Positions 41,890 through 57,178 of a stretch of DNA of 64,000 nucleotides are shown in pieces. Under the pieces are notes generated by a model that saw nothing but the letters and a program-made list of their open reading frames with translations, searched no databases and was not told the DNA's origin. The position numbers and the translations under genes are program-made. Origin of the DNA: an uncultured Bacilli bacterium (GTDB lineage: Bacteria > Bacillota_I > Bacilli_A > RF39 > UBA660). The first letter of the stretch is position 1, and every line of letters starts with the position of its first letter. The stretch is from contig CAKPMN010000003.1 of assembly GCA_934168005.1 (NCBI GenBank), forward strand, positions 1,100 through 65,099. The letters are read 5' to 3'.

Positions 41890-42090
41890 TATAAAGATTT
41901 TGATTAGGACATGACTTTTAATGTGTCTATTATAGAGACTTTGTGGATGGTGTAAACAAAGATAGAACTTAGAAGCTACTACCTATGAATTGTACTCGAA
42001 AGAGTTTCCGGGTAAAACCGTTATCTAATTAAGTTAAAAGGTAGGATGGTACCGCGTATAGACGCTCCTTAAGTAGGGTGTCTTTTTTGT
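41890..42090 (+). promoter_or_regulatory. T-box leader (threonine) controlling ORF147-thrS
   Basis: Promoter-like TTGACT (41856-41861) and TAAAAT (41879-41884). AGAGA, distal GGAUGGUGUAAAC and specifier region GCUACUACCU (ACU/ACC). T-box core AGGAUGGUACCGCG at about 42043-42056. Terminator AGACGCTCC...GGGTGTCT plus a T-run. Confidence 0.75.
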
Positions 42091-44370: not shown

Positions 44371-44447
44371 GGGGGATTAGCTCAGCTGGCTAGAGCGCCA
44401 CGTTTGCACCGTGGAGGTCAAGGGTTCGAATCCCTTATCCTCCACCA
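44371..44447 (+). tRNA. tRNA-Ala (anticodon UGC), encoded CCA
   Basis: Acceptor GGGGGAT/ATCCTCC with the G3:U70 identity pair, anticodon stem CCACG/CGTGG with loop TTTGCAC, and GGTTCGAATCC. Confidence 0.9.
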
Positions 44448-44780
44448 GATTGTTTAAAATGCTCAAACTTTTATAGTTTGAGTTTTTTTTGTGCCCAAAT
44501 TTAGAAAAGTTTTTGAATCTAAGCTATAGTATATTAAAATTATAATACATTATTATTGATTTTTGTTTGGGTGCTATGCTTATGCTTAATTTTAAAATTA
44601 AAGTAGTAAGTTTTTCGTGGTATGTTTTATTATTTTTACCTTTAGGCATTCATAGTGCCAAATACGTTCAATTTATTTTGAATGTATTTGGCTTTTTTTT
44701 GTTATGCATTAATTATTTTAATAGGGCTAGAAGTCCTCCTTTTATCAATAAAAATTTTTATGTTGATAAGGAGGATATAG

Positions 44781-45266
44781 ATGGACAAGTTTCCAAAAAG
44801 AAGAAAAGATAGAGATAACCCATATGCTTTAGGGTTTAATACAAATACTAACATGTATACAGTTACTTTTTTAGATTCATTTAAAGTATCACAAACTATT
44901 GAAATAACAAAAGAAATGTATTTAGAATTTAATAAGTTTGAACTAGAAGATTTATCATATATGAATAAATTTGACAGACATATTGAACATTTAGAACAAA
45001 CAGAAGAATCAATTTATAACAGGACTTTAAGATCAAATGATGATATATGTGATTTAATATTCAATGATATTCTATCTAAAGAACTAAAAAAAGAAATAAA
45101 CAATTTACCTGATATTCAAAAAAGAAGAGTTAAAATGTATTTTTTTGATAGTCTTACATTAAAAAAAATTTCTGAAATAGAAGGCTGTTCTATTAGATCT
45201 GTAAAATACAGTGTTGATATAGCTATTGATAAATTAGCAAAAAAATTAAAAAAATATAAATTTTAG
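44781..45266 (+). CDS. Sigma-70 region-4-type HTH regulator (ICE/conjugative-transposon-style sigma-like protein)
   Basis: 161 aa with RBS AAGGAGGA. The C-terminus LPDIQKRRVKMYFFDSLTLKKISEIEGCSIRSVKYSVDIAIDKL is sigma region 4-like. The N-terminus DNPY...FELEDLSYMNKFDRHIEH resembles sigma-like proteins of Firmicute mobile elements. Confidence 0.6.
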   Translation: MDKFPKRRKDRDNPYALGFNTNTNMYTVTFLDSFKVSQTIEITKEMYLEFNKFELEDLSYMNKFDRHIEHLEQTEESIYNRTLRSNDDICDLIFNDILSKELKKEINNLPDIQKRRVKMYFFDSLTLKKISEIEGCSIRSVKYSVDIAIDKLAKKLKKYKF

Positions 45267-45496
45267 ACTTCAAAAAATTGATTTGTGTGAGGAATATGTT
45301 GAAGAAGATAATCTTCTTCGCATATTCCTTATTTTTTTGAGGTAAAGTTCTTTGACAATTAAATAAATTTGATTGAATGTGTTTTTTTACTATGTATGTA
45401 AGTAAACTTATTGCGATAAAAAATATTAAATTATTTTAAATAATATAGTAGAGAATTTGTTGAATTTTATTTTAAATTAATGAATGGAGGTAAAAG

Positions 45497-48400
45497 GTGA
45501 AAGAAATAGAGTTAAAAAGTTTAAGAAAAGAAAGGGAAAAACATTTTTTAAGAGAAGATGGTCTTATTGTTGCTAAAATGTATGATGATGATATTCATTA
45601 TAAAAATGGCAATGAATATATAGAAATTGATAATACTTTAATAAAAGAAAAAGGTTATTATTATAATAAAGATAACTCATATAAGGTATATTTTCCAGAA
45701 GTCAGTGATAAAGTTTTGATGAGAACGGAAAATAATAATCATTATATCTGTTACACATTACAAGATTCTAATATAGTTGAAGCAAAGATAGATGTAAACG
45801 GTTCAAAATTGTATAAAGATATTAAATATATAAATATTTTAAATGGTATTGATTTTGAATATAATGTTATGCCAAAAAAAGTTAAAGAAAATATTATTAT
45901 TAATAACAAGGAATCTGTTGTTGATAGCATTAATTTTTTGCTTGACACAGATTTAGATTTAATTTTAAATAATGATTCTAGCATTGATGCAAAGTATGAT
46001 GGAAAAACAGTTTTTAAAATAGAATCACCTTATATTATTGGAAAAAATGGACAAATGTTAAATAGTGTTTCATATAGACTTATAAAAAATGATACACATT
46101 ATATTTTAAAGTTACTCTTAAATAAAGAAGAAATACTTAAAAGTACTATAGATTATCCTATTATAATTGATCCAACAATAACAAATTATGGAAGTAGCAA
46201 TAGTGTATATGATGTTTATATTTATGAAGGAGACTCAAATTCTGATAGAAATAGTCAATCATTTTTAAAAGTTGGTGTAGAAAAGATAGATAATCAGTAT
46301 ATTACTAATAGAACTTTGTTAAAGTTTGATTTACCTAAAATATCAACTGGAAGCCAAATTATATATGCAGAGTTAACCTTAATAGGGTATCCAATAGTAC
46401 CTTATTCTTATGATAGTTCGATTGTTAATGTACATCAATTAACTCAAGATTGGGATGAGACGACTGCTGATTGGAATTCAATGAATGATAAATTTAATTC
46501 TAGAATAGAAGGATCTTTTGAAAGCTCAAGAAGTGGTGTATCTAGTGATAATAATTTAATAACTTATCTGTCTGGATGTGAACTCACAGGATTGGTAAAA
46601 AAATGGTATACAGATACTCCAAATTATGGCATTATGTTGAAGTTAAACAAAGAAGTTTACACAACTGATGTCATTCCAATGTTTTATTCTAAAAATAATA
46701 CTGTAAATGGAGCAAATCCTAAACCAATTTTAACGATTATTTATAGAAATCAAAATGGTATAGAAAACTATATGAATTATAAAGAGCAATTATTTATGCA
46801 GGGAAAAAGCTATTTGAATACGTATAATGGAAATTTAACTAGTATTTTTGAAATTGGTTCTACTAAAACTGGAAAATTGCCAATAAATTTAAACATTGTA
46901 TATAATACTAATGATGTTATTTTAAATAAAAATTTAGGTTATGGAGTGGGATGTAATTTAAGTTTAAATCAAATCATAAAAGAAACAATTATTGATGAAA
47001 CTAATTATTTGGAGTATATGGACGAAGACGGTACTCTTCATTATTTTAGAATGATTGATAATGTTTATAAAGATGAAGATGGTCTTGATATGATTATAGA
47101 TAAAAAAGACAATGAATGCATTTTAAAAGATAAAAATAATAATAAAATGTATTTTACAAGGAATGATTCTCTTTATTATTTGACTAAGTTAGAAGATGTA
47201 AGTAATAATGTTACAAGTATTATGTATGATGAAAATGTACGTATTAGTAAGATTATTGATCCATCTTTGTTTGAAATTAATTTATCATATAGTGATAATA
47301 AAATTGTTATCACTAGTCCTAAAGATTTAGTTTCTTTAAATTATAATAATAATAGACTTGTTTCTTTAATTACGAAGAGTGGTATAACATCATTTGAATA
47401 TAACAATAATGGACTAATTTCTGGAATTATAGATGAGAATGGGAAGCGAATAGAGTATGAATATTATGATATATTTCCATATAGAGTTAAAAAAGTAAGT
47501 GAAATAGGATTAGAAAATACAAGTGGTAATTATTTTAGTTTAACTTATAATTTTAATTCAACTACGATAATTGATTACAAAAATAATGCCGAAACAATTA
47601 CTTTTAACAATTATGGTAATGTTGCATCTATTACAACTTTAAAAGAACATAATGATATTTTAGATGCTTATGGTAAATGTGTAGAATATGGTGATGATAA
47701 CTATAGTGATGGAAGTACTTATATTCCTACAAAAAATAAATTATTAAATTCTGATATTTCATGTAAATATGTAAAAAATTATTTATCAAATTCTAGTTTT
47801 GAAGAATCTAATATTTTGTTTTCTAAAACTAATGATGTAGTTTTATCAATATCTAGTGATGATTCGGTTTCCGGATTTAAAAGTTTAAAAGCAGTATCGT
47901 CTTCATCTAATCAGATAATTTATCAGGATATTGTAGTTCCAAAGGGCGATTATTATACGTTTAGTTTATATATAAAGAATTCTAGTATGGCAAAAATCTC
48001 TATATGCTATACAGATGAAAATAATCAAATACAGGAAAAACTTGAACAAATTATAATAAACAATTCTTTTGAGAGATATGATACAACTATTTATTATCCA
48101 AATAGTGCAACTAGTGATTTAACAATTAAAGTCATTTTAGAAGACGCTGGACTATATTATATTGATGATATTCAATTGGAAAAGGGCGAGGTAGCAAATT
48201 TTTACAATCTATTAGATAACTCTGATTTTTCAAAAGGTTTAGATGGTTGGCAATTGACGGCAGAAGATAGAGAAACTTTTGAAAGTATTAATACTTCTGA
48301 TATTTTTTCTAAAGTAATTTTAGAAAAAGGAATAACAGCCTTAAAAATAGATATGAATCCAGCAAATTCTACAAGTATAGCTAAAACATTTAATGTAAAA

Positions 48401-51400
48401 GGAAAGGCAGGAGATAAATATGCTATTTCATTTTGGTACAAAAATGAAGGTTATCCAGCTTATGATACGGAAGGGTCACCTATTTCAAATAACGTTATTA
48501 TAAGTTTTTATTATTCAGATAATGAAAATGGGCATGGAATAGCTCCTTCAAAAGGATTTAATCCTAATGAAAATGAATGGCAATATTTTGTGACTAATTT
48601 TCAATCAGAACAAGATTTTGAATCTATGACTTTAAATTTTTTTCAATATAATAATGCTAATGCTTTATATATTACAAATATTTGTTTATTTAAAGATGTT
48701 AGAAATATAAATTATGAATACGATGATGCAGGAAATTTGACAAGTGTAAATGATTTAACAAATAAAACTACTTCATTTGATCATAATAGCAATAATGAGC
48801 TTGTTAAGATGACGGACCCTAAAGGGAATAATTTAACTTATGAATATAATAGAGATATAACTAGTCAAGTTATAAATGGTATTAGTGAGACAGGAATTTT
48901 AAATAAATTTTTTTATGATGTAAATAATAATCCTATTCGTAACACAATTTCTAAATTAGATTCTTCAAATACAACTAAAAAAAAGTATTATAAAATTAAA
49001 ATATATGGGACAAATAAATATATCAGATGTACTCCGACAGGTATTGTAATTACTGAAGATGATTCACCTCTTAATAAATGGCGTACTAAAGAGGAAAAAG
49101 AATGGGAAAAATTAAGCCATTGTGTATTAGAGAGTTTGTATTTGAATGCAGATGATAATCATGCATTTTTAAGTGGATTATATTGCTATATAAATTTTCA
49201 TCCAAATAGTGATCATACTTATTTAATGGAAATATCAAATATTGGATTGTATTTAAAGTTTGATGGTACAAATATTGTTGTTTCTCAATTAGAAGATAAT
49301 ATAGATCCCTTTAAATTCTATATAGAAACATATGATGATCTATTTATTGAAAATGATGCTACATATTCTGCAAGTGGAAAAGTAATTACTAGTACAAAAG
49401 ATTCTCTTCTTCATAAAACAATTTATAATATAGATGAAGAGACTGGACTTACTAATTCCATTACTGATCCAAATGGAACAGTAACTTCATATACATACAA
49501 TGATAAAGATGAATTAGTTTCAATTACAATGAAAGATAAATCTGTAACATATTCATATAATAATCAAAATTTACTTGATAAAATTAATCAAGGAGCAAAA
49601 GAATATGCATTTGTTTATGATAATTTCTTTAATACTAAACAGATAAAATTAAATAATATTGTTTTAGTAACAAATAATTATGAAGAAAATAATGGTAATC
49701 TATCTTCTAGTACATATGGTAATAATCAAGCAATCTCATTTGAGTATGATAATTTCGATAGACTTATTAAAAAAGTAAAATCTGACGATATTTATCAATA
49801 TAAATATGACAGTAATGGGTCATTAACGAAGGTATTATCTAATAATGATATTATTAAATATACATATGATATGGCTAAAAGAGTTAGAGAATATAGATGC
49901 AATGATTTTAGAGTCAAGTATACATATGATTCAAATGGCAACGTAGTTTTAAAAAAATATATTTTAAACGCAATAGAACATGAAATAGAACATACTTTAA
50001 ATGATGAAGATGAAGTAATTAAAACTATGTTTGATAGTTCAGAACTTAACTATAAATATGATGATTTAGAACGATTAAAATCTATTTCAGGAATTATAGA
50101 TGAAGAATATTCTTATGTAACAAATGGAAAAAGAACATCTATGCTAATAAAAACAAATGGAAATTATTCATATATCTATAATCGTTTAAATAATATAACT
50201 CATATTTATAACGATGGTGTATTGGAACATAGATATTATTATGATGAATATTCACAACTTATTAAAGAACATGATTATATACAAAATCAAACTATAACTT
50301 ATACATATAATAGTTCAGGTAACTTATTATCTAAAAAAATATATGTGTTAAATACAACAGCTTTAATTAATGAAAATACATATGAATACACAAATACTAA
50401 TTGGGAAGATCAATTAACTAAATTTAATAATACAGCCATTACATATGATGAAATAGGCAATCCATTAACAATTGGTGATACACATCTAACATGGATTAAT
50501 GGTAGACAACTAAATAAATATCAAGATTCTGATTATACAATCAATTATAAATATAATGATAATGGGATTAGAACTAAAAAAATAGTTAACAACGTTGAAG
50601 TAAATTATCATTTAGAAGGATCTAAAATAATTTTTGAACAACGTGGTGATAATGTGTTATACTATATGTATAGTGAAGCTGATGAGCTAATAGGATTTGA
50701 ATATAATAGTATACCTTACTATTATTTGAAAAATAATCAAAATGATATTATAGGAATAATTGATGCCAATAAAAATGTATTAGCAAAATATACATACGAT
50801 TCTTGGGGAAAAATTATTTCTATAAAAGATAATAATAATACTGAAATAACATCAAATACTCACATAGCAAATATAAACTCATTTAGATATAGAAGTTATT
50901 ACTATGATTCAGAAACTAAACTATATTATTTAAATAGTAGATATTATAATCCAGAATGGGGAAGATTTATAAATGCAGATGGAACAATAGGAGCAAATGA
51001 AGATATCTTATCTTATAACTTATATATTTATGTAAGTAATAATCCAGTTAATAATGTTGATATAGATGGACATTTTGCATTAACAATGTTTTCTAATATG
51101 ATATATACAGCAATTGTGGTAGTAACAGCGATAGTGGTTAGTAAAACTATAAGCAATACTTTATCTGGTACAAGCTTAGCTTTTCCGACGCGAAAACGAC
51201 TTGAAATGCCAGATTTGACAAAGGTCAAATCTAAAGCTGAAGCCAAATCAAAAACAAAATCTAAGGTTACTTCTAAAGTTGCCGCTGTTTCAAAAGCTAA
51301 AGAAGATGTTACTAAGAAAGATGTAACTAAACCTTGTACGCGTGCTAAATTAGTAAAAAATGATGTTAAAAGATATGGCGAAAGACTTAGTGTTGAAGAG

Positions 51401-51592
51401 ACAGCTAATATTGTTATGAGAGGGAATGATGTAATGTGTGATACCGAACTTGATGTTTTAGCAGTTGGAGTTAGTCTTCCTTTTGGATTTACTAAAAATA
51501 GTGCTGAAAAACATGGAGAAAGTGGCACATATTATTATCATTATCATCCAGTAGGAGTCTCAAGTCGTCCACATATTTGGTTTTATAGTTAA
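45497..51592 (+). CDS. Rhs/YD-repeat polymorphic toxin (2031 aa)
   Basis: GTG start after GGAGG.
- N-terminal DNRLRE-like domain (NRTLLKFDL...).
- Two CBM-like modules at about residues 745-1035.
- Many YD repeats (YEYDDAGNLTSV, YTYNDKDELVSI, YKYDSNGSLTKV, YTYDSWGKIISI).
- Rhs core FRYRSYYYDSETKLYYLNSRYYNPEWGRFINAD.
- Cleavage-type motif NPVNNVDIDGH.
- A roughly 172-aa C-terminal tip. Confidence 0.9.
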   Translation: MKEIELKSLRKEREKHFLREDGLIVAKMYDDDIHYKNGNEYIEIDNTLIKEKGYYYNKDNSYKVYFPEVSDKVLMRTENNNHYICYTLQDSNIVEAKIDVNGSKLYKDIKYINILNGIDFEYNVMPKKVKENIIINNKESVVDSINFLLDTDLDLILNNDSSIDAKYDGKTVFKIESPYIIGKNGQMLNSVSYRLIKNDTHYILKLLLNKEEILKSTIDYPIIIDPTITNYGSSNSVYDVYIYEGDSNSDRNSQSFLKVGVEKIDNQYITNRTLLKFDLPKISTGSQIIYAELTLIGYPIVPYSYDSSIVNVHQLTQDWDETTADWNSMNDKFNSRIEGSFESSRSGVSSDNNLITYLSGCELTGLVKKWYTDTPNYGIMLKLNKEVYTTDVIPMFYSKNNTVNGANPKPILTIIYRNQNGIENYMNYKEQLFMQGKSYLNTYNGNLTSIFEIGSTKTGKLPINLNIVYNTNDVILNKNLGYGVGCNLSLNQIIKETIIDETNYLEYMDEDGTLHYFRMIDNVYKDEDGLDMIIDKKDNECILKDKNNNKMYFTRNDSLYYLTKLEDVSNNVTSIMYDENVRISKIIDPSLFEINLSYSDNKIVITSPKDLVSLNYNNNRLVSLITKSGITSFEYNNNGLISGIIDENGKRIEYEYYDIFPYRVKKVSEIGLENTSGNYFSLTYNFNSTTIIDYKNNAETITFNNYGNVASITTLKEHNDILDAYGKCVEYGDDNYSDGSTYIPTKNKLLNSDISCKYVKNYLSNSSFEESNILFSKTNDVVLSISSDDSVSGFKSLKAVSSSSNQIIYQDIVVPKGDYYTFSLYIKNSSMAKISICYTDENNQIQEKLEQIIINNSFERYDTTIYYPNSATSDLTIKVILEDAGLYYIDDIQLEKGEVANFYNLLDNSDFSKGLDGWQLTAEDRETFESINTSDIFSKVILEKGITALKIDMNPANSTSIAKTFNVKGKAGDKYAISFWYKNEGYPAYDTEGSPISNNVIISFYYSDNENGHGIAPSKGFNPNENEWQYFVTNFQSEQDFESMTLNFFQYNNANALYITNICLFKDVRNINYEYDDAGNLTSVNDLTNKTTSFDHNSNNELVKMTDPKGNNLTYEYNRDITSQVINGISETGILNKFFYDVNNNPIRNTISKLDSSNTTKKKYYKIKIYGTNKYIRCTPTGIVITEDDSPLNKWRTKEEKEWEKLSHCVLESLYLNADDNHAFLSGLYCYINFHPNSDHTYLMEISNIGLYLKFDGTNIVVSQLEDNIDPFKFYIETYDDLFIENDATYSASGKVITSTKDSLLHKTIYNIDEETGLTNSITDPNGTVTSYTYNDKDELVSITMKDKSVTYSYNNQNLLDKINQGAKEYAFVYDNFFNTKQIKLNNIVLVTNNYEENNGNLSSSTYGNNQAISFEYDNFDRLIKKVKSDDIYQYKYDSNGSLTKVLSNNDIIKYTYDMAKRVREYRCNDFRVKYTYDSNGNVVLKKYILNAIEHEIEHTLNDEDEVIKTMFDSSELNYKYDDLERLKSISGIIDEEYSYVTNGKRTSMLIKTNGNYSYIYNRLNNITHIYNDGVLEHRYYYDEYSQLIKEHDYIQNQTITYTYNSSGNLLSKKIYVLNTTALINENTYEYTNTNWEDQLTKFNNTAITYDEIGNPLTIGDTHLTWINGRQLNKYQDSDYTINYKYNDNGIRTKKIVNNVEVNYHLEGSKIIFEQRGDNVLYYMYSEADELIGFEYNSIPYYYLKNNQNDIIGIIDANKNVLAKYTYDSWGKIISIKDNNNTEITSNTHIANINSFRYRSYYYDSETKLYYLNSRYYNPEWGRFINADGTIGANEDILSYNLYIYVSNNPVNNVDIDGHFALTMFSNMIYTAIVVVTAIVVSKTISNTLSGTSLAFPTRKRLEMPDLTKVKSKAEAKSKTKSKVTSKVAAVSKAKEDVTKKDVTKPCTRAKLVKNDVKRYGERLSVEETANIVMRGNDVMCDTELDVLAVGVSLPFGFTKNSAEKHGESGTYYYHYHPVGVSSRPHIWFYS
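50767..51456 (+). repeat. Upstream homology arm, copy 1 (3' Rhs core plus proximal toxin region)
   Basis: 690 nt matching 52708-53397 with only 3 substitutions by direct comparison (offset 1941). Confidence 0.95.
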
Positions 51593-51608
51593 TAGAGGAG
51601 AAAAAAAT

Positions 51609-52328
51609 ATGTTAGTGAAAAATATATCTGTTAATAGCTTTATTTTGCTATTAAAATATGCATTTGAGACATGCAACTATATCTCATTATTTGAACATTA
51701 TTATAATGATCGTTGTGGAGAAGATATTAGAAATTTAATACTAGAAGAAGAAAATTTAAACAGGAAAGAATTTTTTCAGAAATATGTATTTGATGATATA
51801 TCTAATATATGTAAATTATATGAAGATAATAAAAAAATTCAATTTCTTGTGAAACCGTTTTATGAACAAATTAGTTTTAAAGAATTTTCAATAGAGAAAG
51901 TTACAAATATGTATATAAAAAGAGCTATTGAGAATTATTTTTATAAATATAATATAAGAAACTTTTTGTATCAGCATTTTTGTTGCATTAAATGTGTGAA
52001 AAATGTATACCCTGAGCTTACAAGAGGAATTGAGCCATATGGAATAACTTATTATTTAAGTATTGATAATAAAACGAAAAATTCGTTATTAGATAAAAAA
52101 AATATCTGGGATTGGAAATATCCATACAGCTTAGAAGATCTTTGCTTTTTAAGAAATAATCAATATTGGCTTAAATCCGTTGCTCATGAAAAAATATGCA
52201 ATATTTATTGTGAATCAGAGGAAGAATATGAATATTTGAAGTCTATAGGTATTGAATTTTATGATAATAAATACGTACCTATATCTGAAATAGAGAAAAA
52301 GGAATTGATAGTAGCTGGATTAAATTAA
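51609..52328 (+). CDS. Candidate cognate immunity protein 1 (239 aa)
   Basis: Starts 17 nt after the rhs stop with RBS GAGGAG. It is a cytoplasmic-looking paralog of 53555-54274. Confidence 0.6.
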   Translation: MLVKNISVNSFILLLKYAFETCNYISLFEHYYNDRCGEDIRNLILEEENLNRKEFFQKYVFDDISNICKLYEDNKKIQFLVKPFYEQISFKEFSIEKVTNMYIKRAIENYFYKYNIRNFLYQHFCCIKCVKNVYPELTRGIEPYGITYYLSIDNKTKNSLLDKKNIWDWKYPYSLEDLCFLRNNQYWLKSVAHEKICNIYCESEEEYEYLKSIGIEFYDNKYVPISEIEKKELIVAGLN

Positions 52329-52348
52329 TAGTTACTTTGGAAAATATA
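52146..52348 (+). repeat. Downstream homology arm, copy 1 (3' end of immunity gene 1 plus its trailer)
   Basis: About 200 nt matching 54092-54294, with roughly a dozen substitutions and one indel by eye. Confidence 0.85.
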
Positions 52349-52350
52349 GT

Positions 52351-52707
52351 ATGATCAAGAAAATTAATGTAAATTGGAAAAGAATAGTATTATTGATTAT
52401 AATCATACTTATAGCTTATCTTTTGTTTTTTAGTAAATTAAGAATGATGTGGTTACCTGAAGGAGAATATATTGAGAGTGTTACTTCTCCTAATGGTAAA
52501 TATACGTTAAGGTCTTATAAATATAGTGGTGGAGCTACAACAGATTGGCATTTAAGAGTAGAAGTAGTGGAAAATGAAACTAGAAAATCATTTAATATAT
52601 ATTATAAGTATCATGAATACGATTCAGATATGAAATGGATTGATAATGAAAATGTTATAATTAATGATCGGAAAATGAACATTCATAAAGACTATGTTTT
52701 AGAATGA
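52351..52707 (+). CDS. DUF5412-like small membrane-anchored protein
   Basis: 118 aa. Has an N-terminal TM helix, then LPEGEYIESVTSPNGKYTLRSYKYSGGATT...KWIDNENVIIN, which resembles DUF5412 proteins of Firmicutes. Confidence 0.55.
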   Translation: MIKKINVNWKRIVLLIIIILIAYLLFFSKLRMMWLPEGEYIESVTSPNGKYTLRSYKYSGGATTDWHLRVEVVENETRKSFNIYYKYHEYDSDMKWIDNENVIINDRKMNIHKDYVLE

Positions 52708-53539
52708 CAATAAAGATGTATTAGCAAACTATACATACGATTCTTGGGGAAAAATTATTTCTATAAAAGATAATAATAATACTGAAATAACATCAAATAC
52801 TCACATAGCAAATATAAACTCATTTAGATATAGAAGTTATTACTATGATTCAGAAACTAAACTATATTATTTAAATAGTAGATATTATAATCCAGAATGG
52901 GGAAGATTTATAAATGCAGATGGAACAATAGGAGCAAATGAAGATATCTTATCTTATAACTTATATATTTATGTAAGTAATAATCCAGTTAATAATGTTG
53001 ATATAGATGGACATTTTGCATTAACAATGTTTTCTAATATGATATATACAGCAATTGTGGTAGTAACAGCGATAGTGGTTAGTAAAACTATAAGCAATAC
53101 TTTATCTGGTACAAGCTTAGCTTTTCCGACGCGAAAACGACTTGAAATGCCAGATTTGACAAAGGTCAAATCTAAAGCTGAAGCCAAATCAAAAACAAAA
53201 TCTAAGGTTACTTCTAAAGTTGCCGCTGTTTCAAAAGCTAAAGAAGATGTTACTAAGAAAGATGTAACTAAACCTTGTACGCGTGCTAAATTAGTAAAAA
53301 ATGATGTTAAAAGATATGGCGAAAGACTTAGTGTTGAAGAGACAGCTAATATTGTTATGAGAGGGAATGATGTAATGTGTGATACTGAACTTGATGTATG
53401 GCTTGTTGGAAATGAAATAAATGGTGGCATATACTATGACGGTAAACATAGGGAATTACCTAATTACTATTTTCATTATCATCCAAATATTTGGAACTCT
53501 TCGAATGGTGAACATCCACACATATGGTATTTAAATTAG
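52703..53539 (+). pseudogene. Orphan rhs 3' fragment with an alternative toxin tip (no start codon or RBS of its own)
   Basis: The frame opens right after a TAG at 52700-52702 and encodes ..YTYDSWGKIISI...RYYNPEWGRFINAD...DIDGH plus the toxin region. The last ~45 aa differ from the main gene. The first in-frame ATG (53027) has no RBS. Confidence 0.75.
52708..53397 (+). repeat. Upstream homology arm, copy 2
   Basis: See 50767-51456. Confidence 0.95.
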
Positions 53540-53554
53540 AAAAGAGATGAAAAA

Positions 53555-54274
53555 ATGCTTGTAAAAAATTTTTCTAAAGATAGTTTTATTAAATTGAAAA
53601 AATATGCTATTGACAGAAGCAATTATATTTCTTTCTTTATTCAATATAACCGTTGTCATGAGTGTAGTGCTTCGATAATTCAAACTATTCTTGAAATAGA
53701 AAAAAATGATGAAAACTCATTTTTTAAAACCTATACAATAGATGACATTTCAAATTTGAGTGAAAAATATAAGAATATTTATAAGATTAAAAAAATAGTT
53801 GAAATGTATTTGAAAAATTATATTAAAAATGATATTTGCATTGAAAAAGTTACTGAAAGTTACATCTATATAGCACTTACTGACGCATTTTATAAGTATT
53901 ATTCAAAAGAAAATTTAAAAAATTATATGAGTGAGTTAGTATATGAAGAAAAACAATTTTATGGGCAAAATAATTATTTGTTTGGAATAACTTATTATTT
54001 CAAGAATACAGGAAAAGTAAAGAAAGATATTTTGGAAAGTGATAAGATTTTATGGGAATGGATTTTTCCGTATTGTCAGGAAAATATTTGTTTTTTAAGA
54101 AATAATCAATATTGGCTTAAATCAGTTGCTCATGAAAAAATATGCAATATTTATTGCGAATCAGAGGAAGAATATGAATATCTGAAGTCTATAGGTATTG
54201 AATTTTATGAAGATAAATATGTACCTATATCTGAAATAGAGAGAAAAGAATTGATGGTAGCTGGATTAGATTAA
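53555..54274 (+). CDS. Candidate immunity protein 2, paired with the orphan tip (239 aa)
   Basis: Same length and spacing as immunity 1. The N-terminal ~175 aa are diverged, and the last ~65 aa are nearly identical (CFLRNNQYWLKSVAHEKICNIYCESEEEYEYLKSIGIEFY). Confidence 0.6.
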   Translation: MLVKNFSKDSFIKLKKYAIDRSNYISFFIQYNRCHECSASIIQTILEIEKNDENSFFKTYTIDDISNLSEKYKNIYKIKKIVEMYLKNYIKNDICIEKVTESYIYIALTDAFYKYYSKENLKNYMSELVYEEKQFYGQNNYLFGITYYFKNTGKVKKDILESDKILWEWIFPYCQENICFLRNNQYWLKSVAHEKICNIYCESEEEYEYLKSIGIEFYEDKYVPISEIERKELMVAGLD

Positions 54275-54294
54275 TAGTTACTTAGAAAAATATA
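54092..54294 (+). repeat. Downstream homology arm, copy 2
   Basis: See 52146-52348. Confidence 0.85.
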
Positions 54295-54388
54295 ATATAA
54301 AAATAATTATATGTTAAAATTATTTTGTAAAACATTCTGAAGAGATTCTAAAAAAATAGAATTTCTTTTTATATAGAGGAGAGTTAAA

Positions 54389-54688
54389 ATGGTACAAATT
54401 ATTTTTGAATATTGGTTGGAACTTTTATTAACTTCTTTAACAACAGGAATAATATATATATTTAAACAATATGTTGGTCTAAAAAATGGTGTAAAGGCAA
54501 TGCTTAGAAATGAAATTGTGAGAATATATGAAAATTATTCAAAATTAGGGTATTGCCCTAGTTATATGAAAGAAAATGTAAGCGAAATATATGTAAGTTA
54601 TCATAAATTAAAAGGAAATGGAATGGCTACTTATATGATAAATGAAATTTATAAATTACCAAATGAATTTAAGGAGAGTGATGTATGA
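54389..54688 (+). CDS. Hypothetical single-TM protein, first gene of the lysis cassette
   Basis: 99 aa with an N-terminal hydrophobic helix. Its stop overlaps the start of the holin-like gene (ATGA). Confidence 0.45.
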   Translation: MVQIIFEYWLELLLTSLTTGIIYIFKQYVGLKNGVKAMLRNEIVRIYENYSKLGYCPSYMKENVSEIYVSYHKLKGNGMATYMINEIYKLPNEFKESDV

Positions 54689-54888
54689 AAGAAAAAATAA
54701 TCATCCAATTTTGTGAATTATTAAAAGTAAAATCTATTATTACATTAATAGCCTTTATAGCTTTTTTCTACTTGGCTATTAATTCGAAATTAGACACTGA
54801 TAATTTTATGTTAGTGTTAGGAATGATTACAACTTATTTTTTTAATAAAGATCAAAAAGAAGAGGAGCACCATGAAGAAGGCAATTGA
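54685..54888 (+). CDS. Holin-like protein (67 aa, two TM, charged tail)
   Basis: Two hydrophobic segments (SIITLIAFIAFFYLAI and FMLVLGMITTYFF) plus the tail NKDQKEEEHHEEGN. It overlaps the endolysin start. Confidence 0.6.
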   Translation: MKEKIIIQFCELLKVKSIITLIAFIAFFYLAINSKLDTDNFMLVLGMITTYFFNKDQKEEEHHEEGN

Positions 54889-55729
54889 TATATCTTATTA
54901 TCAAAAAAATGTTGATTATAAAAAAGTAAAAGAATCTGGTATTGAAATGGTAATTCTTAGAGCAGGTTTTACAGGCTATGGAATTAATAAACTAAAAAAT
55001 AAAGATAAGCTATTTGAAGAACATTACAATGGTTTTAAAAATGTAGGTATTCCAATAGGTGTCTATTGGTATTCTTGTGCATATACAGAAGAAGAAGCGG
55101 AAGAAGAAGCGTTAAAAGTTCTAGAAATTGTGAAAAACAAAGAAATTGAACTACCTATATTTATTGATGTTGAAGACAATCATGATATTACAAAATCAGG
55201 TTTAGCAAAGCAAAATCAATATGAACTCAGTCGTAATGAGTTAACTAAAGTAGTTGCAAGATTCTGTGAAATAATAGAAAAAAATGGCTATTATGTTGGA
55301 ATATATGCTAGTACGCATTGGTTAAATAAAAAGCTAGACATGAATATTTTAAAAAGATATGATATTTGGGTAGCTCATTATAATGTAAAGAAACCAACCT
55401 ATAATGGAACTTATGGGATATGGCAATATACATCAAAAGGAAATGTTAGTGGCATAAATGGCAATGTTGATTTGGATTACATATATAAAGCATATCCAGA
55501 TATTATTAGGAATAAAGGGCTTAATAACTTATCACAGAAAAAATATGATAAAAATAATTCAGAAGAAAATATATATTACAAAGTTCAGAAAGGTGACAAC
55601 CTTACCAAAATAGCTAAAAAATATAATATTGATTTAAGAATATTGTATGAAGAAAATAAAAATATTATTGGTAATAATCCTAATTTAATTTATCCGAATC
55701 AAATTTTAAAAATAACAAAAAAATATTAA
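54872..55729 (+). CDS. GH25 muramidase with a C-terminal LysM domain (endolysin-type)
   Basis: 285 aa. GH25 N-terminus AIDISYYQKNVDYKKVKESGIEMVILRAG...IFIDVED, no signal peptide, and LysM YYKVQKGDNLTKIAKKYNIDL...IYPNQILKI. Confidence 0.85.
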   Translation: MKKAIDISYYQKNVDYKKVKESGIEMVILRAGFTGYGINKLKNKDKLFEEHYNGFKNVGIPIGVYWYSCAYTEEEAEEEALKVLEIVKNKEIELPIFIDVEDNHDITKSGLAKQNQYELSRNELTKVVARFCEIIEKNGYYVGIYASTHWLNKKLDMNILKRYDIWVAHYNVKKPTYNGTYGIWQYTSKGNVSGINGNVDLDYIYKAYPDIIRNKGLNNLSQKKYDKNNSEENIYYKVQKGDNLTKIAKKYNIDLRILYEENKNIIGNNPNLIYPNQILKITKKY

Positions 55730-55824
55730 AAATACACTTCAAAAAATGTTTTCTAGTGAGGAATATAGTGAAGAGTTTGTCCTCTTCGTTTGACTAAAAA
55801 AATAATAGAAGGGAGAGAGTATAT

Positions 55825-56481
55825 ATGATAGAAAGTAATTCATCTGATTTTACAATGGATGATATTTATTTTAAAGATGCATTTACTATTGAAAATGATA
55901 AGTTAAATTTAGAAGTAAATGATATAACTGCTGATTCGATAATCTCAAAAAATAATAAATTTAGTTTAGATTCTGAAGGTAATTTAGTGGTAAAAACTAT
56001 TACCCCAACAGATGGTATTGCTAATATATCAGGTTTAGGTAATTTGATATATCCAGTTGGAAGTATATATATTTCAACAAACTCTGTTGATCCATCTGTC
56101 TTATTTGGAGGAATGTGGGAATTAAAGAAGAATCGTTTTCTAATTGGAGCAGGCGATAATTATTCTATTGGTGCAATAGGTGGCGATACTACTTTTAATA
56201 CAAGTTCTTATTCAGGTTTGACAGGTAGTACAGCACTTACAATAAATCAAATTCCAAGTCATCAACATAATATTCAAGGTTATAATAATTCTGGATCATC
56301 AGTTACTTGGACAGATAGAGCTATAAGTTATCAAGCTAATTCAAAAGGTTATAGTTCTGGCATTAGGACTAGTTATGTTGGAGGTAGCGAAGGTCATAAT
56401 CACACTTTAGAGCCTCATCAACATAGTGTGTCTGTTTTGCCTCCTTACCTAGCAGTTAATATTTGGGAAAGAATTAGATAA
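55825..56481 (+). CDS. Phage tail-collar-domain (MdpB/COG4675-like) protein
   Basis: 218 aa. Contains PVGSIYIS...GGMWELKKNRFLIGAG, the HxH motifs SHQHNI and GHNHTLEPHQHSV, and the ending PPYLAVNIWERI. Confidence 0.7.
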   Translation: MIESNSSDFTMDDIYFKDAFTIENDKLNLEVNDITADSIISKNNKFSLDSEGNLVVKTITPTDGIANISGLGNLIYPVGSIYISTNSVDPSVLFGGMWELKKNRFLIGAGDNYSIGAIGGDTTFNTSSYSGLTGSTALTINQIPSHQHNIQGYNNSGSSVTWTDRAISYQANSKGYSSGIRTSYVGGSEGHNHTLEPHQHSVSVLPPYLAVNIWERIR

Positions 56482-56560
56482 TTATTTTTTTAGTACGAAT
56501 AACCCTCGGATTATTTTCCGGGGGTTATTTTGAAAAGTTTTTGCATTAAAAAGAAAGTCA

Positions 56561-57178
56561 TTAGACTTTCTTTAATTTTCCTTCTTTTAGTAGATTCAAT
56601 AATTTTATATTTTGTGTTGCGGTTCCTTTATATGAAGTTATACCATTTTTTAAAGCTATTTTTTTTCTAAATGTATAGCTACTATCAATTTTTAAACTTT
56701 TTAATGCATCTACTAATGAATTTGTGTTTCCTATGTATTTTTTATAATATATATCAGTATTTTTATTAGTATTTTCTTCAAATGAATTACTTAAATAATA
56801 AGTTGGATTGATTCTACTTTTTTCTTTCCATACTTCAAAATGTAGGTGTTTTCCATATGCATTTCCTGAGTCACCCATATATCCTAAAATATCACCTTTT
56901 TTGACTTTTTGATTCTTTTTTACTTTCACATATTCTAAGTGAGCATATAATGTATAATAGTTATTATTATGTTTGATTTTTATAAAATTTCCATATGATT
57001 CATTTCCTTTTGAATTTTTATTATTAGTTTTGCCTGTCTGTATTAATATAACTGTTCCATCACTGTGAGCTGTTATAAAATCAAGAGTGTGGTTTTTACC
57101 TACAATATCAATAGCTTGATGACTTTTAGAATATTTATTTGTAATAATTGCTTCTTTACTTTTTAATACTCTATTCAT
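56561..57178 (-). CDS. M23-family peptidoglycan endopeptidase
   Basis: 205 aa. Contains HQAIDI, YAHL and GDSGNAYGKHLHFEV. No signal peptide. Confidence 0.85.
   Translation of the reverse strand: MNRVLKSKEAIITNKYSKSHQAIDIVGKNHTLDFITAHSDGTVILIQTGKTNNKNSKGNESYGNFIKIKHNNNYYTLYAHLEYVKVKKNQKVKKGDILGYMGDSGNAYGKHLHFEVWKEKSRINPTYYLSNSFEENTNKNTDIYYKKYIGNTNSLVDALKSLKIDSSYTFRKKIALKNGITSYKGTATQNIKLLNLLKEGKLKKV

Follow-up and report, generated by a model that had tools for sequence, protein, structure and literature searches.

The window analysed here is a 64,000-nucleotide stretch of contig CAKPMN010000003.1 from an uncultured Bacilli bacterium. Within it lies an island of ~12 kb encoding an Rhs/YD polymorphic toxin that lacks a recognisable export signal, its putative immunity proteins, a small regulator-like protein (SIG), a cassette of three lysis genes that begins with a 99-aa protein (TM99), and a tail-fibre-like protein (GP10C). 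Our best reading of the island is a self-contained, horizontally mobile toxin-release module, having the layout of a colicin operon and a release resembling that of the type 10 secretion system (T10SS). We give this a probability of about 0.55. The layout and the co-inheritance of the genes suggest that expression and release of the toxin depend on them. The original prediction placed a leaderless Rhs toxin between a sigma-like regulator and a holin-endolysin unit; its gene content and coordinates were all confirmed, and independent gene calls on the source contig agree.

The Rhs protein opens with MKEIELKSLRKEREKHFLRED. It is made up of an N-terminal beta domain (aa 1-225), a CBM96-like DNRLRE domain (aa 236-420), a YD shell with inserted lectin-like modules, the Rhs-associated core and a C-terminal toxin. 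The shell matches RHS_repeat (E=1.6e-28) and YD_repeat_2x (E=6e-29), with TEN_YD-shell among the precomputed matches. DNRLRE (E=1.4e-23) corresponds to the CBM96-like half, and the core matches TIGR03696 (E=1e-18, aa 1767-1859). The core terminates in ...NNVDIDGH (~aa 1858), and nothing past this point is conserved in the family alignment, so that an autoproteolysis motif is followed by a variable toxin. The toxin begins with a hydrophobic helix (aa 1860-1883).

We found no signal that would direct this protein out of the cell. Over its first 40 residues the maximum Kyte-Doolittle value is 0.58 in a 12-residue window (family median 0.45), and a Sec-type N-terminal hydrophobic stretch is absent from it and from the whole family save one outlier. 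The protein has no match in Pfam or NCBIfam to the LXG/WXG family or to a wall-anchoring domain (LysM, SLH, sortase signal). AlphaFold2, run with a 61-sequence alignment, models residues 1-420 as all-beta with a predicted local distance difference test score (pLDDT) of 87, rising to ~90 for residues 1-225. This excludes a helical LXG/WXG-type domain for type VII secretion (T7SS). With Foldseek, residues 236-420 match the CBM96 polysaccharide-binding modules 7vbo and 8wab, and residues 1-225 gave no convincing structural match. Hydropathy, model and structural search thus bear out the proposal that the toxin is leaderless, with no Sec or T7 targeting.

The lysis cassette is compact. Its genes overlap by 4 nt (TM99 and holin) and by 17 nt (holin and GH25), the open reading frames (ORFs) are intact, and all three proteins match phage protein families (PHROGs). 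TM99 has an N-terminal hydrophobic segment. The holin-like protein has two hydrophobic segments and a charged acidic/basic C-terminal tail, EEEHHEEGN, and homologues occupy the same position in four related loci (L001, L047, L054 and L070). It is classed as a holin on these features; its phage family match is of unknown function and is not a curated holin family. The endolysin combines GH25 (E=6e-32) with LysM (E=2e-10) and has no N-terminal hydrophobic stretch, as expected of a signal-less hydrolase. The unit of transmembrane (TM) protein, holin-like protein and GH25-LysM muramidase that had been proposed therefore stands in its coordinates, its overlaps and its Pfam and PHROG assignments.

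We surveyed the Rhs family by scanning one genome per species. This gave at least 586 matching stretches, from which 75 loci were kept, mostly metagenome-assembled genomes of gut "uncultured Bacilli/Tenericutes". Forward counts were made on the 63 loci with a full-length Rhs, mostly one per species, after clustering all ORFs of the loci. The family is conserved in length (~2030-2100 aa), and strongly so at the N-terminus. SIG lies 2-3 genes upstream of Rhs in 14 of these 63 loci. A holin or lysin is found within ~6-8 genes of Rhs in 25/63, and a lysin with an adjoining small TM protein in 20/63; in L014 the cassette is slightly further from Rhs. Lysis genes are present in 12 of the 14 loci with SIG versus 13 of the 49 without (p=1e-4), though the loci are related by descent and Fisher tests therefore overstate their independence. 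Detection of holins and lysins was based on the clusters and may miss some. When 150 genes upstream of the modules were scanned against Pfam, most matches were to unrelated housekeeping families, and lysins were under-counted; the representative of the commonest lysin cluster has no Pfam match, and its members carry HxH motifs of the M23/LAS type and match PHROG endolysins.

The cassette occupies one of two places. In some loci, the window included, it lies 3' of the immunity genes, and in others it directly precedes GP10C. The slot holds Phage_holin_4_1 holins (12 loci), holin-5-like proteins or members of two unnamed holin families, and lysins that are either of the M23/LAS type or GH25. The presence of different holin and lysin families in the same slot argues for selection on function and not for shared descent of one remnant. 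About 60% of the family loci have no recognisable adjacent holin or lysin, so the cassette does not define the Rhs family as a whole. The conserved linkage to a signal-less cargo thus holds for a subtype. The test of co-occurrence with the rhs family that the original prediction called for came out positive, for the loci with SIG and not for the family at large. In L034 (860-5500 and 16600-18000) there are four copies of TM99, two followed by holin and lysin and two truncated, as though lysis cassettes had been duplicated in tandem, or had decayed, around a single Rhs module.

The linkage was also examined in reverse, by searching metagenomes with an alignment of TM99. The 80 matches form two groups, separated by a gap. 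Among the close relatives (60-87% identity), 13 come with 3 kb or more of upstream DNA. In seven of the 13 there is a full-length Rhs closely preceded by GP10C, and six of the seven have SIG as well. Three more have Rhs fragments, and in the remaining three the 239-aa immunity gene is represented by its conserved end, directly upstream. None of the 56 distant relatives (32-47%) has Rhs, GP10C, SIG or the immunity gene nearby, 31 of them having at least 3 kb upstream. Three of five that were sampled (L114, L142 and L155) follow tape-measure, minor-tail or tail-fibre genes. From these alignments and neighbourhoods the cassette is phage-derived, and one of its subclades, no longer in a phage setting, is inherited together with the Rhs module.

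The most constant partner of the Rhs family is GP10C, which lies just outside the region covered by the original prediction and was overlooked there. It matches Pfam Gp10_C (E=6e-17), PHROG tail proteins and the tail fibre of PDB 9nxk, and carries HxH motifs. Neither GP10C nor the lysins have an N-terminal hydrophobic segment, here or across the family. A Gp10_C gene is found no more than three genes upstream of Rhs in 50 of the 58 loci with room to see the upstream gene, and anywhere in the locus in 53. These tallies were initially 48 and 51; L010 and L033 were added when longer Gp10_C proteins were detected there. GP10C is usually directly upstream of Rhs, and in the window is displaced to the 3' end of the module. 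An ORF of ~105-135 aa lies between GP10C and Rhs in 15 loci (L001 9573-9980, L047 9576-9980, L053 3493-3849 and 12 others). It is absent from the window and has no match in Pfam or PHROG; it could be a fibre chaperone or adaptor. The gene order in L055 (6019-9960), and also in L078, L079 and L029, is a tail protein with a Gp10_C C-terminus, a TM protein, holin, lysin, a short GP10C and Rhs, so that in this variant phage tail genes are still joined to the module.

SIG ends in a helix-turn-helix (HTH) of sigma-70 region 4. The match to Sigma70_r4_2 (E=2.1e-5, 24.5 bits) is just below the Pfam cut-off of 25.7, and there are partial sigma-70 matches in NCBIfam. The AlphaFold2 model (pLDDT 83) has a three-stranded sheet and a long helix followed by the region-4 HTH, which Foldseek superposes on region 4 of sigmaE bound to -35 DNA to within ~1 Å over 63 residues. 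We found no match to Sigma70_r2 in Pfam or NCBIfam, the N-terminal half being modelled as the sheet and helix, and with Foldseek no sigma structure aligns with SIG past ~60-80 residues at low root-mean-square deviation. Lacking region 2, SIG is not a member of the sigma factors, including group 5 with TcdR, UviA and BotR. The sigma-like regulator of the original prediction thus keeps its region-4 HTH and loses its kinship to TcdR and UviA, on both sequence and model. SIG may act at -35-like sites. Its relatives have 155-160 aa with conserved PKRRK-NPY...FEL-DLS...DRHIEH motifs, and are named sigma-70 family sigma factors by the NCBI pipeline.

Integrative or mobilizable elements carry the relatives of SIG, which adjoin serine recombinases or tet(O), and a weak homologue is found downstream of tet(O) on mobilizable Enterococcus plasmids. 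A kinship of SIG with Orf7 of Tn916 is conceivable. Second copies of SIG in L001, L047, L010 and L054 precede large serine recombinases; we had considered the 545-aa genes that follow them as terminases and rejected this, since they are those recombinases. A role for SIG as a phage late regulator was also rejected, there being no homologue in 50,697 phage records. In L001 (20137-23109), L047 (18432-22990) and L010 (20211-23684) the Rhs module is followed by the second SIG and its element, by small ORFs and by large serine recombinases, either one or two of them, and there the module looks like cargo of an integrative element.

The gap between SIG and rhs is exactly 230 nt, and contains a cis element (45267-45366) that the original prediction did not remark upon. 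This element, a terminator and a promoter-like box, follows the SIG stop codon in most loci. The terminator is a long hairpin, GAGGAATATG...CATATTCCTT, followed by a U-run (-25.4 kcal/mol, z = -7.5). Related loci have a hairpin at the same position, with arms that differ in sequence yet pair. The hairpins were judged by single-sequence folds; RNAalifold predicted none, MAFFT having misaligned the 3' arms. The box has TTGACA at 45352-45357 and a weak -10, and lies ~130 nt before rhs. At least 11 loci keep its motif TCTTTGACAATTTA downstream of their SIG genes, the SIG copies that lie ahead of recombinase genes among them. Terminator and TCTTTGACAATTTA both follow SIG in L001, L010, L015, L035, L047, L050, L054, L058 and L074, and several loci have TAAATA ~15-17 nt past TCTTTGACAATTTA. 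The box is probably the start of the toxin operon and a candidate target of SIG.

Only weak hairpins, within the endolysin gene and before TM99, were found when we looked for a strong + strand terminator between 45340 and 56550, and a single long transcript over this interval is plausible. The gap between endolysin and GP10C holds a copy of the left half of the cis element (55730-55790). It lacks the outer stem and the U-run (-9.2 kcal/mol, z = -0.96) and so is not a terminator. Its position before GP10C suggests that GP10C has moved from its usual place between SIG and Rhs. Fuzzy matching to the motif of this repeat in front of other GP10C genes told us little, the DNA being AT-rich; it was an alignment of the regions 3' of SIG that brought out the element. 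At 44657-44692, some 90 nt ahead of SIG, is a perfect 15-bp inverted repeat with a T-run (-21.3 kcal/mol, z = -7.9), which may be an operator, or simply a terminator. It contains AAATACGTTC; the same motif is found just past the TTGACA box in L010, L015 and L035, and, in the form AAATACATTC, in L050.

The genes following rhs have the layout of a polymorphic toxin, with a downstream immunity gene and an orphan toxin/immunity cassette. The first 239-aa protein has no Pfam match, and its homologues follow Rhs in 6-7 related loci; it is the putative immunity protein for the resident C-terminal toxin. The DUF5412 protein has one TM segment and recurs after Rhs in related loci. The 3' core of rhs is duplicated (50763-51062 and 52704-53003; 300 nt, 99% identical), and so is part of the immunity gene (52073-52352 and 54019-54298; 280 nt, 85% identical). 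These repeats flank the orphan toxin/immunity pair, in the arrangement expected if C-terminal toxins were swapped by recombination. The resident (51074-51145) and orphan (53027-53086) toxins share their initial hydrophobic helix, MFSNMIYTAIVVVTAIVV, which is followed by a Lys/Ser-rich linker. The shared helix may be a segment for membrane insertion or translocation.

The features of the island are summarized in Table 1. The window, which comes from a metagenome contig, is low in GC (~26%), and all the island genes are on the + strand except the last. Sporulation genes lie beyond its right edge, and the rest of the window is housekeeping (tRNA synthetases, recA, RNase Y, spoIIIAH, gerE, gerM and mutS). 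The only Rfam match in the island is the tRNA-Ala at its left edge. Upstream of thrS there is a T-box leader (41891-42072; 87.9 bits, slightly below the gathering score of 93). The M23 peptidase that converges on GP10C has a DUF3597-like tail and clusters with the M23-type endolysins found in related modules, so that it may be left over from a second cassette.

Table 1. Genes and sequence elements of the toxin island, in window coordinates
Feature	Position	Strand	Basis and remarks
tRNA-Ala, left edge of island	44371..44447	+	ARAGORN, Rfam; thrS upstream; flanks housekeeping
SIG, 161 aa	44781..45266	+	Pfam, NCBIfam, AlphaFold2, Foldseek
Intrinsic terminator 3' of SIG	45284..45339	+	Single-sequence fold
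Promoter-like box GTTCTTTGACAATTAAAT	45347..45366	+	Conservation 3' of SIG genes
Rhs/YD polymorphic toxin, 2031 aa, GTG start	45497..51592	+	Pfam, NCBIfam, alignment, AlphaFold2
Putative immunity protein, 239 aa	51609..52328	+	Position; homologues after Rhs
DUF5412 membrane protein, 118 aa	52351..52707	+	Pfam E=1.1e-28; accessory or immunity-type
Orphan toxin cassette	52704..53539	+	Copy of rhs 3' core 52704-53003; alternative C-terminal toxin ORF 53027-53539
Second 239-aa immunity paralogue, partner of orphan toxin	53555..54274	+	Translation, repeat
Weak hairpin and U-run, possible partial terminator	54339..54375	+	-11.3 kcal/mol, z = -2.2
TM99, 99 aa, first gene of lysis cassette	54389..54688	+	phrog_4105 E=6e-16
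Holin-like protein, 67 aa	54685..54888	+	phrog_13256 E=6e-11; sequence features
GH25 and LysM endolysin, signal-less, 285 aa	54872..55729	+	Pfam; phrog_291 E=2.5e-54
Truncated copy of post-SIG element	55730..55790	+	Repeat, 76% identity; fold
GP10C, 218 aa, tail-fibre-like	55825..56481	+	Pfam Gp10_C, PHROG, PDB 9nxk
Terminator-like hairpin closing + strand unit	56550..56573	+	-11.2 kcal/mol, z = -4.3
M23 peptidase	56561..57178	-	Pfam Peptidase_M23; membership of module uncertain

The module might work as follows. SIG, a small DNA-binding protein of the region-4 type, would be transcribed alone, transcription being halted at the strong terminator. It would then activate the conserved TTGACA-type promoter just downstream, and this would drive one unit comprising Rhs, the immunity genes, the orphan toxin/immunity pair available for swapping, the lysis trio and GP10C. 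In the cells that express the unit the holin would give the endolysin access to the wall. The cell would lyse or leak, freeing the ~230-kDa Rhs cocoon and the signal-less, trimeric fibre-like GP10C. A neighbouring cell would be bound at its surface by the fibre and by the lectin-like modules of Rhs, CBM96-like and others, and the C-terminal toxin would kill cells that have no immunity protein. It is speculation that the released endolysin also attacks target walls from outside. A more ambitious version, which we put forward tentatively and would not bet on, is a class of Gram-positive bacteriocins that has so far gone unrecognised, in effect "tailless tailocins". Here a GP10C trimer would dock the leaderless Rhs, the endolysin might breach the target wall, release would be by dedicated lysis and the SIG-type activator would derive from integrative elements, the whole being widespread in gut Bacilli and independent of secretion systems. 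Genes of phage tail-like bacteriocins or extracellular contractile injection systems (tube, sheath, tape-measure, baseplate) were not found in the window, and none is conserved across the loci.

Several observations weigh against release by a dedicated module, in addition to the shared descent of the loci and the majority of them without adjacent lysis genes. SIG lacks region 2, and its target is a candidate only. The cassette of L029, L055, L078 and L079 comes after a phage tail protein of 649 aa, and in those loci it may be the lysis module of the prophage itself. Several modules adjoin serine recombinases, and the lysis genes could serve a mobile element. Lastly, the search for T7SS genes was confined to the 64-kb window and to the 10 kb around Rhs in the related loci.

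The alternative that best survives has an integrative element or prophage carrying the module as cargo. The cassette would serve the element, Rhs and GP10C would ride along, and release would be incidental. The recombinases and second SIG that follow the module in four loci and the tail protein that precedes the cassette in L055, L078 and L079 speak for this; the lysis proteins belong to phage families, and a tRNA-Ala sits at the island edge. Yet the island itself has no recombinase, capsid, tail or conjugation genes, and integrative conjugative elements need no lysis cassette. The TM99 clade linked to Rhs stands apart from that of the phages, and Rhs or an immunity remnant invariably accompanies it. 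The Rhs family has three full-length members among 2.9 million IMG/VR contigs, and in cultured phage genomes there is no full-length member, with one partial match in phage records; given this near-absence we rejected the family as phage cargo. We consider carriage on behalf of an element unlikely.

The holin might instead export the toxin without lysis, as has been proposed for TcdE with TcdA and TcdB in Clostridioides difficile. The holin would be the conduit, the endolysin would loosen the wall locally and the producer would survive. The layout resembles that of the C. difficile pathogenicity locus (PaLoc), and there is published precedent for holin-mediated secretion. The Phage_holin_4_1 holins of the 12 related loci are also consistent with this, as we take TcdE to be a member of that family. 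However, no part of the endolysins is missing here, whereas TcdL has been described as the remnant of one, and the cargo is a folded cocoon of ~230 kDa with a trimeric fibre. Sequence does not separate lytic from non-lytic use. Such export seems to us somewhat less probable than carriage by an element.

A third possibility is that the cassette has another role and that Rhs is exported by T7SS or by a machine not yet described, unlinked to the island, for which the conserved N-terminal beta domain is the recognition signal. This might explain why the first ~60 Rhs residues are so strongly conserved (M1, E5, R10, E14-L18) and why so many loci manage without adjacent lysis genes. But the N-terminus is all-beta, not a helical LXG/WXG domain. 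There is no EssC or WXG100 gene within the 64-kb window, and in the 10 kb around Rhs the 64 loci examined share no secretion ATPase or other machine component, nor any further conserved gene. We regard this route as improbable.

The competing explanation raised in the original prediction, that the lysis genes are an unrelated and decaying prophage remnant beside rhs, is very improbable: the phage family matches of the three lysis proteins, the tail-fibre-like gene that follows them and a setting by a tRNA gene typical of prophage debris are set against a linkage that recurs in 20 to 25 loci, mostly of different species and with differing flanks and holin/lysin families, a strongly positive reverse test, intact and overlapping ORFs and a tail-fibre-like gene that is itself the constant partner of Rhs. 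Neither the island nor the whole window contains terminase, portal, capsid, tail or integrase genes of an intact prophage. The cassette is not confined to intact prophages in relatives, and a subset of the rhs homologues has it.

The proposed toxin-release module has partial counterparts among known systems. The Tc toxin of Yersinia entomophaga is released by a T10SS, a cassette of holin, endolysin and spanin (PMC10847048, PMC10847046). Both systems have a very large signal-less toxin, an Rhs-type cocoon and an adjoining phage-derived lysis cassette. The Y. entomophaga toxin is released by lysis of the producer, whereas here lytic release is proposed from the genes. The Yersinia system is Gram-negative, requires a spanin and is directed at insect targets, and its toxin has three components, A, B and C, in a complex that includes a pentameric injector. 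The island encodes a single-chain Rhs with immunity genes in a Gram-positive genome, with no TcA and with a small fibre-like Gp10_C partner.

In the PaLoc (tcdR, toxin, tcdE, tcdL) and related loci of large clostridial toxins, a signal-less large toxin likewise has a small dedicated regulator upstream and an adjoining holin and lysin of phage type. SIG has region 4 only, in contrast to a group-5 sigma factor. In place of a glucosyltransferase the island has an Rhs polymorphic toxin accompanied by immunity genes; its endolysin is intact, and the holin in the window is from a different family.

Colicin operons have the gene order toxin, immunity, lysis; the producer is sacrificed, its kin are protected by immunity, and the operons are mobile. 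The island similarly has toxin, immunity and lysis genes in what may be one unit, and a weak terminator may precede the lysis genes. Colicins are encoded on plasmids of Gram-negative bacteria, their lysis gene specifies a lipoprotein, they are under SOS control and they have receptor-binding and translocation domains of their own, unlike the holin and endolysin, Rhs cocoon and separate fibre-like protein found here. The three-gene lysis cassettes of Firmicute prophages share with the island the order of small membrane protein, holin and signal-less endolysin. One such is PBSX xhlA-xhlB-xlyA, which we take to be a cassette of membrane protein, holin and endolysin, the parallel with xhlA being one of gene order. 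Distant TM99 homologues hold the same place after phage tail genes, from which the Rhs-linked clade has departed.

WapA-type Rhs proteins of Bacillus subtilis and Streptococcus suis have a Sec signal peptide and wall-anchoring LysM domains (PMC12704120). The toxin here shares with them the YD shell, a DNRLRE domain, a polymorphic C-terminal toxin, immunity genes and orphan cassettes. It has neither Sec signal nor wall anchor, and is linked instead to lysis genes and GP10C. The original prediction considered the combination undescribed for Firmicute Rhs toxins, and in full-text literature searches we found no description of it. The available part of the text of the 2012 polymorphic-toxin survey never mentions holins. 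No close known system unites a Gram-positive leaderless Rhs polymorphic toxin with a dedicated lysis cassette and a fibre partner.

The passage of Rhs cocoons of 200-300 kDa across a Gram-positive membrane and thick wall is an unresolved problem. The exit route was stated to be unresolved in the 2025 paper on S. suis WapA (PMC12704120), and a 2026 study of bacterial teneurin-like proteins, which are relatives of Rhs/YD, has signal-less members without a known delivery route. A large signal-less family, with a subtype that is co-inherited with its own clade of lysis genes, provides a testable answer, that the cocoons are released by lysis in the manner of colicins and Tc toxins. The analysis also identifies two unstudied parts. 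These are a near-universal fibre-like partner, which may set the target range, and a unit of regulator and promoter that is shared with integrative elements. If the proposal is true, it would add a new way in which bacteria of the gut microbiota antagonize one another.

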